Source: Acutalibacteraceae bacterium
Lineage (GTDB): Bacteria > Bacteroidota > Bacteroidia > Bacteroidales > Paludibacteraceae
Assembly: GCA_963659365.1 (NCBI GenBank)
Contig: CAVKTI010000004.1
Location: forward strand, 9,776 to 73,775
Direction: 5' to 3'
Length of the DNA: 64,000 bases
Part shown: positions 1-47,850 of the stretch, piece by piece
How positions within the stretch are numbered: position 1 is the first letter of the stretch
Layout: the number at the start of each line of letters is the position of its first letter
Position numbers and translations under genes: made by a program
Notes under the pieces: model-generated
Seen by the model: the letters and a program-made list of their open reading frames with translations, nothing else
Databases searched by the model: none
What the model was told of the DNA's origin: nothing

Positions 1-489
1 TAAGGTGCAGAAAGTTATTGTTAGTCGCAAGATGTGAGTAGCAAGTAGCAAGTAGCAAGACAAGATTTTAAGAAGATAGAACATAGACTTTTTAATTGTC
101 TAATTATCTAATTTCCAATTACTTAATTATTTGAAAATGGCGTCGCTTTTGGGTGCGAATAATTCATAATTCATAATTGGCACTAACCCTACCCCTGCTT
201 ACGCAGGTACTCCCCTTGAAAAGGGGAGAGGACATAACCAACTTGGGCGCAAACCTGTCCCCTTCGCAAGGGGACGAGCGAAGCGGAGGGGTTGGAAACC
301 AATGAATAATTAACAATGAAAAATGAATAATAATTGCGACTTTCGACTACCGAAAACTAGAAATTAGAAATTAGAAATAAAAACGCTTCAACGCTTCAAC
401 AAATAAACACAGAAACAGCGCGTAGCGCGATAAACATAGAAATTTAAAAACAATTCACCAAATTATCAAACAACTAAATCCACAACAAA
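1..489. repeat. Composite intergenic repeat cluster (mosaic of short modules)
   Basis: Contains (TAGCAAG)3 at about 38-58, attttaagaagatagaacatagac, the AT-rich block tttttaattgtctaattatctaatttccaatt, (AATTCAT)2, the three-hairpin GC core at 161-296, (AGAAATT)3, (ACGCTTCA)2 and aaacagcgcgtagcgcg. Nearly the same string recurs at 1243-1689. Confidence 0.9.
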
Positions 490-1242
490 ATGAAACATCT
501 ATCTGAATTTTGGAGAAGTACGCTGCGCTATACGCTAGCGACTTTTATCGGTATTGTGCTGACTTTCGGCACGGCATTCGCCCAGAAACGCTACGAGCAG
601 AAAAAAACCAAGCGCACGGCAGCCGTGATGGTCGTCCATAGCCTGAGTTATTTCGGCGCAAGTATGGATACGCATATCAAAGAACTGGAAAAAAGAGATT
701 CGCTAAATCAAATCGTTTGGAAAGATTGGGAGACCGACAAGCGACTCCCCCAAGATACATTACGACTGTTCACTAATTCTCTGCTCAACCGCGATTTTTA
801 TGGAGAGAACAATACGGCGGAGTCCGTGTTTCGTTCCAATATCGAAACATGGATAAACATTGGCAATGGCGAATTTATAGAATTGGTGAGCCATTGTTTC
901 GCTGCCAGGCATCTAATAAATCAAATGTGCGAAGAGATGGAGGAAGAGAAAAGACAACTTTGGTACACCTATATGAATACCATGTTCTATACCGACAACC
1001 CCACACAGTCAGCCCAAGAAGAGGTCGATCGGGTATTTCGTTCGCCCGAACTCCGCTGTTTTATACAAAAACAACATCAGCTGTATATTCCCTCTTTGAA
1101 AATATGCTTGATGGCGATGGGGGAACAGATCGAAAGGATTAAACAACTAATGCATATTACCGATGAAGAGTTGCAGCAATTTGGCCTTAATACACAAAGA
1201 GAATATATAATTGAACTGACACCGTCAGATGATTCCGAATAA
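490..1242 (+). CDS. Hypothetical membrane-anchored protein, paralog A
   Basis: 250-aa ORF with one N-terminal hydrophobic helix (TLATFIGIVLTFGTAFA). By eye it is roughly 60-65% identical to the 1690-2421 product. No family recognised. Confidence 0.7.
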   Translation: MKHLSEFWRSTLRYTLATFIGIVLTFGTAFAQKRYEQKKTKRTAAVMVVHSLSYFGASMDTHIKELEKRDSLNQIVWKDWETDKRLPQDTLRLFTNSLLNRDFYGENNTAESVFRSNIETWINIGNGEFIELVSHCFAARHLINQMCEEMEEEKRQLWYTYMNTMFYTDNPTQSAQEEVDRVFRSPELRCFIQKQHQLYIPSLKICLMAMGEQIERIKQLMHITDEELQQFGLNTQREYIIELTPSDDSE

Positions 1243-45064: not shown

Positions 45065-47485
45065 ATGGAATTGATAGACAGAGTAAAAAAAATTCTTGTA
45101 ACGGCAGGTGTGTTGTCTAAAAGAGACGCAGGAAACACAACGCCTCGCTTGTCAAGCGTTGCAGACACAGGAATGGGTGATGCAGAATTTATATCAACAA
45201 CGACCTATAATCATGGTTGTAGTAAGACAGAGAAGCAAAGAAACAGTAAACAAAACTTTCTCTTTCTCGTACCTTCTACTGCCGAGCAAGAACAACAACA
45301 ACCAACCTCTGAACAAGCACAAGAGCCAACTGCCGAGCAAGAGCAACCTGCGCCCGAACAAACGCAGCAGCCTACTACCGAGCAGACTGCCACCGAACAA
45401 ACAGCAGAACAACCTACTGCCGAGCAACAGCAGCAAACGGAGCAGAAACAGGAGCAGCCCACGCCAATAGGTGCAGAGCAGAAAAACAACGAGGCGGTAT
45501 TTCAGCCCAAAACGAAAAAGGTTATTTTCCGCTACAAGACCCAAGACGGTCGGTCGTTGTCGCTACCGCTGACATCAGAGGGCGGCTTCTATGTGCGCCC
45601 CGATGGAACGGTCGATTGGGAACGCACACGCTTTGAACACCCAGTGTATTGGAAACCAATGGGCAAAGCCAAGTTGTTCGCTCCTTTCTATCACGACCAT
45701 CTCGACCAAATGCTCGAAGCCGACTGTGTTACAGTGGCACGCCACAACGCCGACCTGCGTGCCGAGCAGCGGCGTGCCGAGCAGGAAGCCGCCGCAAAGG
45801 CACAGGCAGAGGCGCAAGCCAAGCAGCAGCAACAAGCCATAGCCGAACAGCAAGCGGCACAGCAGCCACGCTACCCAACGAAAAAGGACGGCACGCCCGA
45901 CTTTGATAAGATGACCCCACAGCAGGAGTACGACTATCAAGTAGAAACTAACGGTGAAGAGTCGGCACAAAAGGTTGCGCAAGCCTATGTCAATCGCTAC
46001 CAATCGGCTGTTGATAATATACAGGCGCAACTCGATAGCGGCAAAGGCACGAATAGCGTATCGGCTATGCAAGCCAAACTGAACGAAAACAAGGAGCGGC
46101 TCGAGGCGTGGCGTGCGTTTGTGAAAGAGCAGCAGCAAGAAACGCAGCCGCAAGCCGAACAGACGCAGCAAACCGAACAGACGCAACAAGCCCCACAAGC
46201 AAGACAACAACAAGAGCAACCGCAACAGCAAACTGAACAGACGCAGCAAACCGAACAGCAAGACGAGGAGGTAGGGTTAAGCGATGAAGACCTTTGGCAT
46301 AAGATGGAGGAGCAGGCTCAAATCGTTACTGCGCCTGTTTCGTTTGGCGATGAAAAATCGCTTGCTAAACGAAACGCCGCTATGCAGGAGTATTTTCGGC
46401 TGCAAGAACTCTATTGGAACCGATTGGAAAACCAAAAGCAGCGCAGAGCAGAACAAAAATCTGCACCGCAAGCAGAGCCTGTGCAACAGCCGCAACCTAC
46501 GCCAGCAGCGCAAGTAGAGCCTACTCCAGCCCCTGCGCCACAAGCCGATCCGAAAGCGATGAGCGAACGGTTCAAAAATCCGAGAGCACTGTTTTATGCA
46601 TCGATGATGCGAAAATTGCGTAACGCTATACAGTGTGCCGATACAAGCACAAAACGCCAACAACTCGAAACAACACTCAAATGCAGAATGAAATGGTGGA
46701 CCTCTTCGATTTACAACTCGATATGCGACCCAACACTCAGTGCTGAATATGCTTCCGTATTCAAAACATTGGAAACGGGAGAACTCACCGACGCAGAGCG
46801 ACAATCGACAGAGATGCGTGCCGCAAATTTGAGAATGCTGCACCAACAAGAACAGGGCGAAATGTATAGATACGCCATGAACCTATTGCGCAAAGCCAAA
46901 GAGTTTTCCGAATTGGAACGCTTGGTAGCCGAAACCGTGATTGATACGGTAGAGAATCTCCGAAAAAAAAGATTGGAAATGCTTGTTATGCCGCGATTAC
47001 AAAAGATCAAGGGCGTAAGCGATATAACCATCAATAGCGGCATCAGTGTCCGTCCGAGCGTACAAGGAGAACTGATGGAACTGATTCATGTGGTAGAGGC
47101 CACCGTAACCTCCGATGCCCAAGCAGATTTTCTTTATGCCATAGAAACGGCGGCAGATCTCATAACTCCAGACCGTTTTTCTATCTATGCTGACGAGTTA
47201 ATAGCAAAAACGCACGACAACAGAGAAACATGGAGAAAAGTAAGGTTCGATCCGCAATTTACCGAACTGCGATATGGCATGGACGATGGAGTAACGGTGC
47301 GCTTCATGTTCGAGCGAGAAACCAAAAACACCCTGCGTTTCAAAGAATTAGTCGACGACGAGTTTGATATCCCGAAAATGAACACCATCTATGTGAATAA
47401 ATCGCTGTTGAAAAAAATCGGCTACAGCCCACTCGATACGCTCTACATAACGCTACAACACAACGGTGATTTCACCGCAAAATAG
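45065..47485 (+). CDS. Large Q/E/T-rich hypothetical protein with coiled-coil-like regions
   Basis: 806-aa ORF. Low-complexity TEQ/AEQ tracts lie at 45278-45466 and 46128-46272, and an Ala/Gln/Glu helix (AEQRRAEQEAAAKAQAEAQAKQQQQ) is present. The C-terminal module is shared with the 64-aa ORF. No signal peptide, and the start is uncertain. Confidence 0.65.
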   Translation: MELIDRVKKILVTAGVLSKRDAGNTTPRLSSVADTGMGDAEFISTTTYNHGCSKTEKQRNSKQNFLFLVPSTAEQEQQQPTSEQAQEPTAEQEQPAPEQTQQPTTEQTATEQTAEQPTAEQQQQTEQKQEQPTPIGAEQKNNEAVFQPKTKKVIFRYKTQDGRSLSLPLTSEGGFYVRPDGTVDWERTRFEHPVYWKPMGKAKLFAPFYHDHLDQMLEADCVTVARHNADLRAEQRRAEQEAAAKAQAEAQAKQQQQAIAEQQAAQQPRYPTKKDGTPDFDKMTPQQEYDYQVETNGEESAQKVAQAYVNRYQSAVDNIQAQLDSGKGTNSVSAMQAKLNENKERLEAWRAFVKEQQQETQPQAEQTQQTEQTQQAPQARQQQEQPQQQTEQTQQTEQQDEEVGLSDEDLWHKMEEQAQIVTAPVSFGDEKSLAKRNAAMQEYFRLQELYWNRLENQKQRRAEQKSAPQAEPVQQPQPTPAAQVEPTPAPAPQADPKAMSERFKNPRALFYASMMRKLRNAIQCADTSTKRQQLETTLKCRMKWWTSSIYNSICDPTLSAEYASVFKTLETGELTDAERQSTEMRAANLRMLHQQEQGEMYRYAMNLLRKAKEFSELERLVAETVIDTVENLRKKRLEMLVMPRLQKIKGVSDITINSGISVRPSVQGELMELIHVVEATVTSDAQADFLYAIETAADLITPDRFSIYADELIAKTHDNRETWRKVRFDPQFTELRYGMDDGVTVRFMFERETKNTLRFKELVDDEFDIPKMNTIYVNKSLLKKIGYSPLDTLYITLQHNGDFTAK

Positions 47486-47850
47486 GCTTTCGTTACCGCT
47501 TAATTCATAATTCTAAATTCTACATTGGCATTAACCCCCTCCGCTTCGCTCGTCCCCCTATCTTTTCGCTACGCTCCAAGCAGGGGGACAGGTTCGCACC
47601 CAACATTTTCTCGTTTTCTCCCCCTGCTGCGCAGCAGATAGGGGGAGTACCCACGCAAGTGGGGGTAGGGGTTTGGTTTAATTAAGAGTTAAGAATTTAG
47701 AATTATGAATTATCCGCGTTCCCAACCGCCTTAATTATTCAATTTTCGTCGGACGCACGCGGTGCGTCCCTACAATTTGAAATCTGAAATTTGAAATTTG
47801 AAATTGCGGCTCTGCCGCACCACCTCTCACCTCTTCATTTTTTTACACTT
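47486..47850. repeat. Composite intergenic repeat cluster
   Basis: Contains the TIR-bounded GC core at 47502-47711, the hairpin GGACGCACgcgGTGCGTCCctac, reverse (TTGAAAT)n followed by GCGGCtctGCCGC, and tttacactttttcacat. Confidence 0.9.
47502..47711 (-). repeat. MITE-like copy of the three-hairpin GC core with perfect 18-bp terminal inverted repeats
   Basis: The left end is aattcataattctaaatt (47502-47519) and the right end is aatttagaattatgaatt (47694-47711), its exact reverse complement. The interior has three GC stems homologous to those in copies at 161-296, 1388-1518, 6118-6258 and 35351-35526. Confidence 0.75.

Follow-up and report, generated by a model that had tools for sequence, protein, structure and literature searches.

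Most of the longer intergenic gaps in a 64,000-nucleotide stretch of contig CAVKTI010000004.1 (assembly GCA_963659365.1, positions 9,776 to 73,775; hereafter the window, whose own coordinates are used throughout) are filled with a mosaic of short tandem arrays and GC-rich hairpins. This mosaic is real, fast-changing and apparently undescribed, and it is a relative in kind of the bacterial interspersed mosaic elements (BIMEs) of Escherichia coli and of the short tandemly repeated repetitive (STRR) sequences of cyanobacteria. The material is probably a lineage-specific BIME-like mosaic, in which mobile hairpins of the repetitive extragenic palindrome (REP) type and hypervariable arrays are duplicated block by block, with selection acting as a filter near gene ends. 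To our knowledge, REPs, BIMEs and the REP-associated tyrosine transposases (RAYTs) have been studied almost only in Proteobacteria, and heptamer arrays mainly in cyanobacteria; here, REP-type hairpins and heptamer arrays occur side by side and densely packed in gut Bacteroidales, an order that matters greatly in medicine and ecology.

Extent, anatomy and turnover of the mosaic

Arrays with a period of 7 or 8 were detected with Tandem Repeats Finder (TRF) and assigned to intergenic or coding DNA according to a curated gene map. The 7925 bp of intergenic DNA contain 53 such arrays covering 1554 bp (196 bp/kb), while the 56 kb of coding DNA contain two, covering 35 bp (0.6 bp/kb). For intergenic regions of at least 100 nt, the 52 arrays observed compare with a mean of 0.76 and a maximum of 3 in 100 dinucleotide shuffles. 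Words of 11 nt common to at least two different gaps account for 46% of intergenic bases, as opposed to 5% after shuffling and 7% when pieces of equal size are taken from 22 different genes. By direct count, the material is present in 15 to 16 of the 19 intergenic regions of at least 150 nt before position 47938. Long simple sequence repeats are recognized by tandem 7-nt units that exceed chance in non-coding DNA, and the window has these together with units of 8 nt.

A preliminary description of the window had named modules and gaps, and every one of its module strings and coordinate ranges was located in the sequence; nearly all of the roughly 70 short arrays reported by TRF for the window lie inside the regions it named. 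The share of the first 47,850 bp, given there as about 8%, is somewhat larger, with the listed regions summing to 4953 bp (10.4%). The supposed heptamer TGAAGAT is actually the 8-mer TTTGAAGA, and the supposedly fixed AT-rich block (hereafter the AT block; two exact and two near copies) is a decayed 8-periodic array (TAATTGTC TAATTATC TAATTTCC ...). Region 37330-37520, also listed as mosaic, does hold hairpin modules but no array scored by TRF.

The arrays comprise 2 to 8 units in various states of decay, with 31 arrays of 7-nt and 22 of 8-nt units, and many units are of the form AATTNNN. About 20 modules had been thought to be freely reordered; the vocabulary is small and is used on both strands, but the freedom was somewhat overstated, as much of the sharing consists of collinear blocks of 60-270 nt. 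Segments 8317-8380 and 35502-35565 are 94% identical, 12481-12568 and 19293-19380 are 90% identical, and a composite of about 270 nt is shared at 80% between 12300-12600 (reverse complement) and 19265-19560, with an insertion or deletion (indel) of one 7-nt unit. A recurring order is TAGCAAG array, ATAGAAC array, AT block, GC block and AATTCAT array. Such limited arrangements of palindromic units and conserved non-palindromic motifs, found here in the 60-270-nt blocks on both strands, characterize BIMEs, and it is because REP-type modules and simple repeats stand in recurring orders on both strands that the material is read as a BIME-like mosaic.

Independent assemblies agree on the sequence of the mosaic. 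Positions 12949-19783 are 100% identical to contig CAVGOQ010000118.1 of the metagenome-assembled genome (MAG) GCA_963630945.1, over 6.8 kb with four mosaics included, and two Logan contigs (L002, L003) are identical to the window as well. Both Logan contigs end at 18452, inside a TAGCAAG array, and the MAG contig closest to the window is only 6.8 kb long. Short-read assemblies thus end inside arrays and are fragmented by these repeats, the one point that would speak for an assembly or chimera artefact limited to the window. Since independent assemblies are identical and the same modules recur both in a sister species, on other contigs (L111 15298-15607), and in genome CAVBBP01, on three contigs, the mosaic is not an artefact, and that explanation counts as already refuted, with a probability close to nil. 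In practical terms, the repeats break short-read assemblies, inflate intergenic DNA by about 10% in this region and offer markers for strain typing.

The window has a G+C content of 48.8% and a Pfam content typical of Bacteroidota (OMP_b-brl_2, PCMD, DUF3078, a giant Flg_new_2 repeat protein and an H+-PPase). Relatives of its RecO protein, at 90%, 80%, 66%, 64% and 63% identity, were without exception recovered from MAGs or metagenomes, in one case from pig gut, and a member of the 64% group carries the name 'Bacteroidales bacterium'; Bacteroides proteins reach about 42%. By these protein comparisons the source organism is an uncultured gut Bacteroidales; the phylum-typical domains, and the presence of a 22-nt core sequence of the mosaic in many Bacteroidales families, agree with the earlier placement in Bacteroidota.

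Orthologous loci were taken from protein homologues and their contigs, a RecO query of the JGI metagenomes having given none. The density of 7/8-nt arrays is 24.8 bp/kb in the window and 34.5 and 39.6 bp/kb in the 90% relatives, while the 80%, 64% and 63% relatives have no arrays in 11-17 kb and likewise lack the GC modules. With a contrast this sharp among relatives (none at 80% RecO identity), gain and loss of such DNA become traceable. The gap between tRNA-Arg and SpoU illustrates the turnover. It holds 296 nt of mosaic in the window and 520-550 nt in the 90% relatives, where the internal modules differ in set and order and the ends are the same (an AATGAAG-type array behind the tRNA, and a ACTTTCAC array before the start codon); a light version occurs in the 66% relative, and there is almost no gap in the 64% and 63% relatives. 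In the 80% relative (L113 4960-5700, L114), the same gap holds two small open reading frames (ORFs; 70 and 130 aa) and no mosaic, which looks like an inserted gene pair.

Two strains of the 90% species (L111, L112) are 98.3% identical over 9.2 kb and are distinguished within arrays by indels of 7, 16, 7 and 21 nt, a unit-number polymorphism of the STRR type, with a substitution density five times higher in non-coding than in coding DNA. A poly-G tract beside a degenerate REP unit also differs between them (L111 8873, L112 2776; G7 vs G10). In CAVBBP01, labelled Segatella copri, the modules of the window are found at 85-97% identity, compared with about 70% for coding matches whose orthology is not established. 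Other carriers of the 22-nt core have mostly arrays of period 7 (283 TRF rows, vs 108 for period 8), with overall array densities between 0 and 59 bp/kb, and the unit sequences change from genome to genome.

Hairpin modules, transposase linkage and the REPIN-like element

Among the GC-rich modules, hairpin H1 (AGAGCCGCCACACTGTGACGGCTCT; GTAG-AGCCGCCACA-CTG-TGACGGCT-CTAC; three copies) is 29 nt long, with a stem of 9-13 bp and one mismatch, and bears GTAG/CTAC on one foot in two copies and on both feet, as a 'double foot', in one. H2 (GTAG-GGACGCAC-NNN-GTGCGTCC; four copies and one half copy) is 23 nt long, with a perfect 8-bp stem and the GTAG foot in all four full copies and in the half copy. 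H3 (TGCGGC-NNN-GCCGCA; three copies) had been described as GCGGC-N3-GCCGC, and H4 is AAAATTGC-N4-GCAATTTT (four copies). The preliminary description had missed H5 (AACAGCGCG-N-AGCGCG-AGAAAC; five copies), the hairpins TTTCCCC-TTCG-GGGGAAA (three copies, those at 19477 and 29797 with feet GTAG and GTGG), the non-palindromic GC block TTGCGGCGTTTTTGAGCGCGAAT (at least four copies) and a multi-hairpin GC element of 110-150 nt. Several smaller hairpins have GNA or UUCG-like loops.

By structure, foot and location, and for H1 alone also by linkage to a RAYT-like gene in other genomes, the GC modules are REPs or pairs of them of the kind called REPINs (REP doublets forming hairpins). H1 and H2 are imperfect palindromes within 20-40 nt with a GT[AG]G foot, and they are extragenic, dispersed and multi-copy: all copies are intergenic, with three of H1 and five of H2 in 48 kb, and further copies of the H1/H2 type occur in CAVBBP01 and metagenome contigs. 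In a search of positions 1-48000 at gathering thresholds and at E<=1, Rfam matched only tRNA-Arg, so that no curated RNA family covers the modules. Positions 1-489 found no blastn match in 5,426 E. coli genomes, and the modules are thus not the enterobacterial palindromic units Y, Z1 and Z2; searches of PLSDB plasmids and INPHARED phages were likewise without a match.

The exact 25-mer of H1 occurs on three JGI metagenome contigs, two of which represent one locus (L116/L118). There, three to four H1 copies lie directly 3' of a frameshifted ORF with the motifs PDHIH, WQ and YIENN. After repair of the frameshift, the protein scores E=6.9e-13 against NCBIfam NF047646, 'REP-associated tyrosine transposase' (48.7 bits, under the curated cut-off of 80), and E=0.004 against Pfam Y1_Tnp. 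The same gene had been the sole lead in a search of about 1 Mb of DNA with an HUH...Y regular expression and with phmmer using E. coli RayT, as a weak match (E=0.34). At E<=1e-10 the family numbers 713 homologues, for the most part Bacteroidales MAG proteins without a name; JGI calls one of the homologues RayT. Across metagenome and Logan contigs, two to four H1 copies directly follow the Y1 transposase gene: an intact 181-aa copy (L123, a Logan contig) is followed by two H1 copies in inverted orientation, H1 flanks the gene on both sides in L126, and the linkage recurs in L127-L128. A homologue of 54% identity (L124) has a related hairpin, GTAGAGACGTCATATTATGGCGTCTCTAC, on either side. In these other Bacteroidales contigs, H1 beside a RAYT-like gene is the arrangement that defines REP-RAYT systems. 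Two further observations concern these loci. The same 1-nt frameshift just past the HUH motif is present in L116 (212-717) and L118, reflecting either a decaying copy or a shared sequencing error, and a second, different Y1_Tnp gene (IS200-like, 149 aa) lies 2 kb from the RAYT-like gene in two of three strains, L127 (7643-8092) and L128 (7714-8163), and is absent in the third, L126.

The 110-150-nt element is present in six copies: c1 (183-295, +), c2 (1410-1518, +), c3 (6134-6258, with a variant right end), a half copy that is a single REP unit with the 22-nt core (7090-7126, -), c5 (35350-35496, -) and c6 (47532-47675, -). Copy c1 shows the terminal inverted repeat CTAACCC...GGGGTTGG, three hairpins and the 22-nt core GGGGACGAGCGAAGCGGAGGGG. 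From the left, the order is CTAACCCC(T)CC, a small hairpin, GTAC and CTCCCCTT-GAAA-AAGGGGAG; to the right of a 30-90-nt spacer follow TGTCCCCTT-loop-AAGGGGAC, GAGCGAAGC and GGAGGGGTTGG. Folded as single-stranded DNA, 170-305 forms one long hairpin (z=-5.3) by pairing of its left and right units, and the element is therefore an inverted doublet of hairpin units, that is, the REPIN form of an inverted REP pair with a short spacer. The doublets are symmetric in MAGs of the Bacteroidaceae (L029, L047) and asymmetric in the lineage of the window, and the architecture is kept in at least 14 genomes.

Hairpin 2 of the element is perfectly paired in all 21 full elements, with 12 different inner stems (for example, CTCCCCTT/AAGGGGAG, CTTCCCTT/AAGGGAAG and CTACCCCTG/CAGGGGTAG) and 13 stem-loop variants; the stems were counted directly, since the arms were out of register in a MAFFT alignment of whole elements. 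Co-variation is also seen in the outer inverted repeats, as TAAC..GTTA, ATAC..GTAT and CCAC..GTGG. The element thereby shares its terminal inverted repeats, (C/T)TAACCCC...GGGGTTA(G/A) with the ATAC and CCAC forms as other subfamilies, with miniature inverted-repeat transposable elements (MITEs). Between co-directional genes, 20 copies lie along transcription and 21 opposite to it, and copies are more common in convergent (19) than in divergent (11) gaps, which argues for a selfish element acting at the DNA level rather than an RNA gene.

In the species-representative genome collection, the 22-mer is exact in more than 107 stretches among the matches listed. Carriers among those matches are Bacteroidaceae, Alistipes, Paludibacteraceae, Dysgonomonadaceae, Prevotellaceae, Prolixibacteraceae and one Flavobacteriaceae MAG, on a contig of which (L030 907-1052) a single core hairpin unit forms a perfect 62-nt tandem triplication. 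Contigs binned as Clostridia, Bradymonadales and Flexilinea (L036, L094, L110) carry the core too, by either mis-binning or horizontal transfer, and the copy in L110 resembles c6. Among viral sequences, the core is present in 21 IMG/VR stretches (0.006 expected by chance, by our own estimate) as single hairpin units at phage intergenic spots, and one phage has at least four copies together with a portal gene (phrog_156, E=4.5e-45). These predicted Bacteroidales phages (L129-L149) have heptamer arrays of their own (ACTACCT, AACAGTC, AGTAAGC), with at least one 7/8-nt array in 17 of the 21 loci. A core identical across families and phages is a ready marker for the horizontal spread of miniature mobile DNA; no paper containing it was found in the literature searched.

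The BIMEs of E. coli combine REP palindromic units with conserved extra-palindromic motifs. The mosaic resembles them in being extragenic, often at 3' ends or within operons, in using few palindromic types and conserved motifs in recurring orders on both strands, in the GTAG-type foot of its palindromes and, for H1 in other Bacteroidales, in a link to a RAYT-type transposase. It differs in having no sequence similarity to them, in non-palindromic parts that are 7/8-nt arrays of varying unit number, and in its greater length (190-490 nt), filling about 10% of the region. The STRR heptamers of cyanobacteria, together with the small dispersed repeats (SDRs) of Nostoc that reportedly sit inside heptamer arrays, are similar in that many heptamer units stand in intergenic tandem, mixed with short hairpin repeats, as H5 does in a TAGAAAC array. 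However, the units here are AT-rich AATTNNN forms in another phylum, none of the TRF consensus units being CCCCAGT, TTGGTCA or CAACAGT, the unit sequences that STRRs are said to have, and arrays of 8-nt units are about as common as those of 7-nt units (22 vs 31). The foot, the REPIN form, the RAYT link of H1 and the behaviour of the arrays all fit the likeness to BIMEs and STRRs first proposed for this DNA, as an analogy and not as membership.

With REPINs and RAYTs (PMC3116915; PMC6006769), the mosaic shares the 110-150-nt inverted doublet folding into one long hairpin, the inverted pairs of H1 by the RAYT-like gene and the double foot GTAG...CTAC, which has been described in a Y1 subclass from Cyanobacteria and Bacteroidetes; Bacteroidetes had already been credited with RAYT subclasses whose REPs are atypical or 'double-foot' (PMC6006769). 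In contrast, the doublet here is asymmetric, its left unit being a variant, no RAYT stands beside it in 107 loci, and its core is identical across families and also in phages, while classical REPINs are described as vertically inherited and lineage-specific (bioRxiv 10.1101/2022.05.22.493013). TAACTGA and other heptamer direct repeats have been reported in Beggiatoaceae, Cyanobacteria and a few Bacteroidetes, near start codons in 'forward' orientation, along with other intergenic heptamers in Gramella and Aequorivita and repeats in Paludibacter (PMC4679880). Short tandem heptamers near start codons are also found in the window, which has no TAACTGA arrays; one unit and a proposed post-transcriptional regulator are at issue in that study, whereas here dozens of units are joined to REP-type hairpins and block-copied. 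The BrickBuilt MITE of Porphyromonas gingivalis (PMC4596501) is likewise a Bacteroidales tandem array carried in a miniature inverted-repeat element, but by its published description it is a single family with one minisatellite and not a vocabulary of hairpins and arrays. Apart from general REP/RAYT surveys that touch on Bacteroidetes and these two reports, literature searches returned no description of such a mosaic in Bacteroidales, which, together with the Rfam result, bears out the earlier impression that it is undescribed in Bacteroidota.

Position relative to genes and competing explanations

Promoters were sought as the Bacteroidetes -7 box TAnnTTTG with a preceding A-run; a sigma-70 scan was at chance level, and the sigma-70 model is inapplicable to Bacteroidetes. 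Boxes lie in unique DNA near most gene starts (6902-, 9956-, 10178+, 12683+, 16039+, 18292+, 34021-, 35156-, 37032-, 37647+ and 47901+, with the strand as sign), so that most mosaics are bounded by a gene end on one side and the next gene's promoter on the other. At five start codons (490, 1690, 18679, 39081 and 40708) a mosaic is directly adjacent, without an intervening box, and one mosaic lies in a 215-nt leader (15735-); having no promoter between them and the start codon, these must be transcribed as intercistronic or leader RNA. Hypervariable sequence is thus set beside promoters, start codons and terminators of housekeeping genes, which is of practical consequence. Two further promoter-like boxes, 37312(-) and 29672(-) (A-run, TAnnTTTGCAG), are followed within 300 nt by no convincing gene; the nearby small ORFs look spurious, Rfam gives no match, and unannotated small RNAs or small proteins are possible there.

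Arrays close to starts are G-poor on the sense strand (G-C = -112 over 696 nt) and have 2.2 ATG/GTG/TTG per 100 nt on that strand, compared with 9.2 on the antisense strand. H1 lies 21 and 31 nt past the stops of 11614-12321(+) and 19550-20245(-), its 9-13-bp stem being followed by TGTT(T/A)TTTG, and is the strongest terminator-like site in the first 20 kb. Along a gap, the first array has G>C in 12 of 13 cases and the last has C>G in 11 of 13, which is mathematically the same statement as arrays being G-poor by starts and C-poor by stops.

A mechanism that would account for the mosaic begins with the GC palindromic units as non-autonomous mobile DNA, which may be copied as single-stranded hairpins by a Y1 HUH transposase of the RAYT type encoded elsewhere in the genome; carriage of the 22-nt core by phages would explain its spread across Bacteroidales. 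The AT-rich 7/8-nt arrays would grow, shrink and decay by replication slippage, the AT block being one such decayed array, and heptamers, the commonest long simple repeat, have been attributed to polymerase slippage (Mrazek 2007, as summarised in PMC4679880). Hairpins and adjoining arrays would then be copied jointly as 60-270-nt blocks, through composite transposition or through recombination between dispersed copies, the outcome being that about 10% of the 48-kb region was filled. Mostly selfish or neutral, the mosaic would be filtered by selection according to position: the arrays left at starts would be those that are G-poor and almost free of ATG, GTG and TTG on the sense strand, and H1 would survive directly past stops in the orientation of hairpin and T-run, as a usable terminator. 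The data directly establish the anatomy and non-randomness of the mosaic, its REP features, the RAYT link of H1 in other genomes, the length polymorphism of arrays and the patchy distribution among relatives; the mechanism of block-copying and the selective filter, like mobility of the modules in this genome, are what we infer.

Several results weigh against this BIME-like reading. No clean pair of filled and empty hairpin sites was found, and the flanks of 30 copies of the REPIN-like element have no consistent target-site duplication, nor was a parent insertion sequence seen; mobility is therefore deduced and not observed. By regular expression and family profile, no RAYT-family ORF was found in the 64-kb window, the sister loci or 107 core-bearing loci, the profile found no copy in the viral core-bearing loci, and in the profile-searched 107 loci no RAYT-like gene is flanked by H2 or by the 22-nt core hairpin. 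The genomes with RAYT and H1 (L126-L128, L124) are almost without 7/8-nt arrays, so that REP activity by itself fails to explain the arrays, and the contrast between the array-rich lineage and its array-free 80% relative is not accounted for. The polarity along gaps is weak or absent in other Bacteroidales and in the window rests on re-used, non-independent modules, and array ends fall within 6 nt of a GC hairpin in 5 of 44 cases, a weak excess over the 2.3 +/- 1.4 expected.

One alternative dispenses with a transposase. Local slippage, with homologous recombination or gene conversion between gaps that share arrays, shuffling and homogenising their blocks, would have produced the mosaic, and the hairpins would be immobile old terminators or REP relics. 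The collinear blocks of 60-270 nt and 80-94% identity could come from recombination or gene conversion alone, which also counts against the mobile BIME-like mosaic; the arrays supply many short homologies, and neither the missing target-site duplications nor the absence of a RAYT near any sampled core copy would be a surprise. However, a core and hairpin architecture identical across families and phages require transfer or active copying, in other Bacteroidales H1 directly adjoins a RAYT-like gene, and the modules of CAVBBP01 exceed in identity its coding matches (their orthology, as said, not established), and we regard this alternative as unlikely. A similar degree of doubt attaches to the proposal that the modules are selected cis-acting expression cassettes (portable 3' ends, insulators and unstructured G-poor leaders), which, in an organism lacking Shine-Dalgarno sites, would determine where transcription ends, how stable the mRNA is and how translation starts, their repetition being the re-use of working parts. 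The position of H1 with its T-run after two stops agrees with this proposal, as do the G-poor arrays nearly free of start codons, the ACTTTCAC array before SpoU, which is kept in the sister species and, more lightly, in the 66% relative although the interior of the gap has turned over, and the mosaics between the housekeeping genes gpsA, pgi and phosphorylase, which are probably co-transcribed. Yet the 80%, 64% and 63% relatives express the same genes with short gaps and none of the material, the REPIN-like element has no orientation preference, H1 and H2 also sit where or in such a way that they cannot terminate a neighbouring gene, array lengths vary between strains, and Rfam has no match. 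The related idea that arrays close to stops supply stop codons in three frames is unsupported (9.4 stops per 100 nt sense vs 7.2 antisense).

The neighbours of the hairpins bear on a further possibility. By direct reading, TTTnnnAC or AATTTGA units lie past the CTAC foot of H2 in all five copies, ATTTCAA units lie next to H3 in all three, H5 is inside a TAGAAAC array in all five, and ATTGTCA units lie next to H1 in two of three, which suggests that each hairpin type has its own adjoining array. The hairpin system itself might therefore write the arrays, with nicking or fork arrest at the REP foot duplicating the adjacent 7-8 nt and the hairpin-array pair then moving jointly. Single core units in phages also adjoin heptamer arrays, and Cyanobacteria and Bacteroidetes, in which heptamer arrays are concentrated (PMC4679880), are also the main carriers of certain Y1 subclasses (PMC6006769). 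Against this stand the weak boundary test, the RAYT and H1 genomes almost without arrays, and core-bearing loci in which arrays are nearly as common in gaps without the core (49 of 152) as in gaps with it (29 of 60), and we judge such array writing very improbable. The broader claim that hairpin and array are one system, a Y1/HUH hairpin element of Bacteroidales and their phages that seeds and carries its own 7-8-nt array and so 'writes' whole gaps, is distinctly unlikely; with the formal proximity test weak, the idea that hairpins seed arrays stays at low probability. If true, it would also explain the STRR heptamers of cyanobacteria, a phylum that shares particular Y1 subclasses with Bacteroidetes.

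Regions of the window and neighbouring genes

The mosaic at 1-489, upstream of the gene 490-1242, begins with TAGCAAG x3, an ATAGAAC-type array, the AT block (89-120) and the GC block (129-158), and continues with an AATTCAT array, REPIN-like c1, an AATGAAT array, TAGAAAT x3, ACGCTTCA x2, H5 (414-435) and a G-poor leader. A paralogous mosaic at 1243-1689, which differs from it partly by whole-unit array changes, precedes the tandem paralogue 1690-2421. The two genes (250 and 243 aa; no Pfam match; N-terminal membrane segment) are 75-80% identical in their coding parts and were duplicated together with about 450 nt of upstream mosaic. Between convergent genes, 5934-6308 holds H1 (5986-6014), an AATGAAG array, a decayed AT block, the GC block (6088-6118), c3 and an 8-periodic stretch of CAAATAAC/ACGCTTCA. 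The mosaic 7020-7241 is reversed and lies upstream of the promoter of gene 6309-6851(-), with 8-mer arrays, the REP unit 7090-7126(-), a decayed AT block and a CTTGCTA array. At 8205-8390, an intercistronic mosaic is 67% array and comprises ATTGACA x5, GGTTAGA x5, TTTGAAGA x2, the GC block and AATTCAT-type x5, and a fragment at 10030-10075 consists of a half H2 with CTAC foot followed by ACTTTnnn units.

The first composite of about 270 nt (12314-12590, -) follows a response-regulator gene and contains an ATTGACA array, H1 (12340-12368, terminator-like, then TGTTTTTG), a TTTCCCC hairpin (12399-12417), an AATTCAT array, the AT block (12492-12523), an ATAGAAC array and a TAGCAAG array. The second (19210-19549, +) lies between convergent genes, with the AT block at 19338-19369 and H1 at 19491-19519, terminator-like for 19550-20245(-). 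Convergent genes also flank 14781-14988, where H3 (14781-14795), H4 (14820-14839) and H5 (14848-14869) are joined by a GTTTCAG array and 8-mer arrays of TAACCAAA and ACGCTTCA. In the divergent region 15736-16046, AAAGTGnn/CACTTTnn arrays form inverted arms by both gene starts, H5 is at 15803-15824, and promoter-like boxes 15959(-) and 16039(+) lie in the unique centre. The tRNA-Arg-SpoU gap (18383-18678), 88% of which is in shared 11-mers, holds AATGAAG, TAGCAAG and AAAGTnnn arrays, H2 (18482-18504) and a ACGCTTCA array, then H4 (18556-18575), AACCAGA x3 and ACTTTCAC x7 abutting the GTG start at 18679.

By the stop of NAD synthase, 29755-29944 contains TTTGAAGA x2, a TTTCCCC-TTCG hairpin (29801-29820) and H2 (29902-29924, -) followed by ACTTTC units. 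The mosaic 35165-35613(-), upstream of the promoter 35156- of gene 34123-35112(-), consists of GTTGATGA x8, a GTTGAATC array, c5, an AATTCAT array, the GC block (35527-35567), a TTTGAAGA array and ACTTTC units. Region 37330-37520 is a module-only stretch between divergent promoter-like boxes, with AAAGT units, H5 (37452-37473) and H4 (37483-37502). In the gpsA-pgi gap (38793-39080) are AGCAAGA x5, an ATAGAAC array, AAAGT units, H2 (38898-38920), TAGAAAT x3 and TCATCAAC-type x5, and in the pgi-phosphorylase gap (40419-40707) an AGTGAGA array, H3 (40456-40470), AATTTCA x6.6, H4 (40627-40646) and CACTTTCA x4 abutting the ATG. The last mosaic (47486-47860), upstream of the promoter of the giant gene (47901+), has AATTCAT-type arrays, c6, H2 (47751-47773, -), AATTTGA x4.6 and H3 (47805-47819).

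The giant ORF itself runs from 47938 to beyond 64000 (+) and encodes more than 5354 aa, with a signal-peptide-like start, DNA repeats of about 220 nt throughout and ten Flg_new_2 (InlB B-repeat) domains in the first 1500 aa. Fourteen minus-strand ORFs in one frame at 49924-63978 were considered as a recoded gene and are only the antisense shadow of this plus-strand gene. Two other proteins of the window also contain internal DNA repeats. A 709-aa fibronectin-type-III protein (24590-26719, -) has four of about 297 nt, and an 806-aa protein without Pfam match (45065-47485, +) has a low-complexity stretch rich in Q, E and T that derives from 12-24-nt tandem repeats at 45278-46231.

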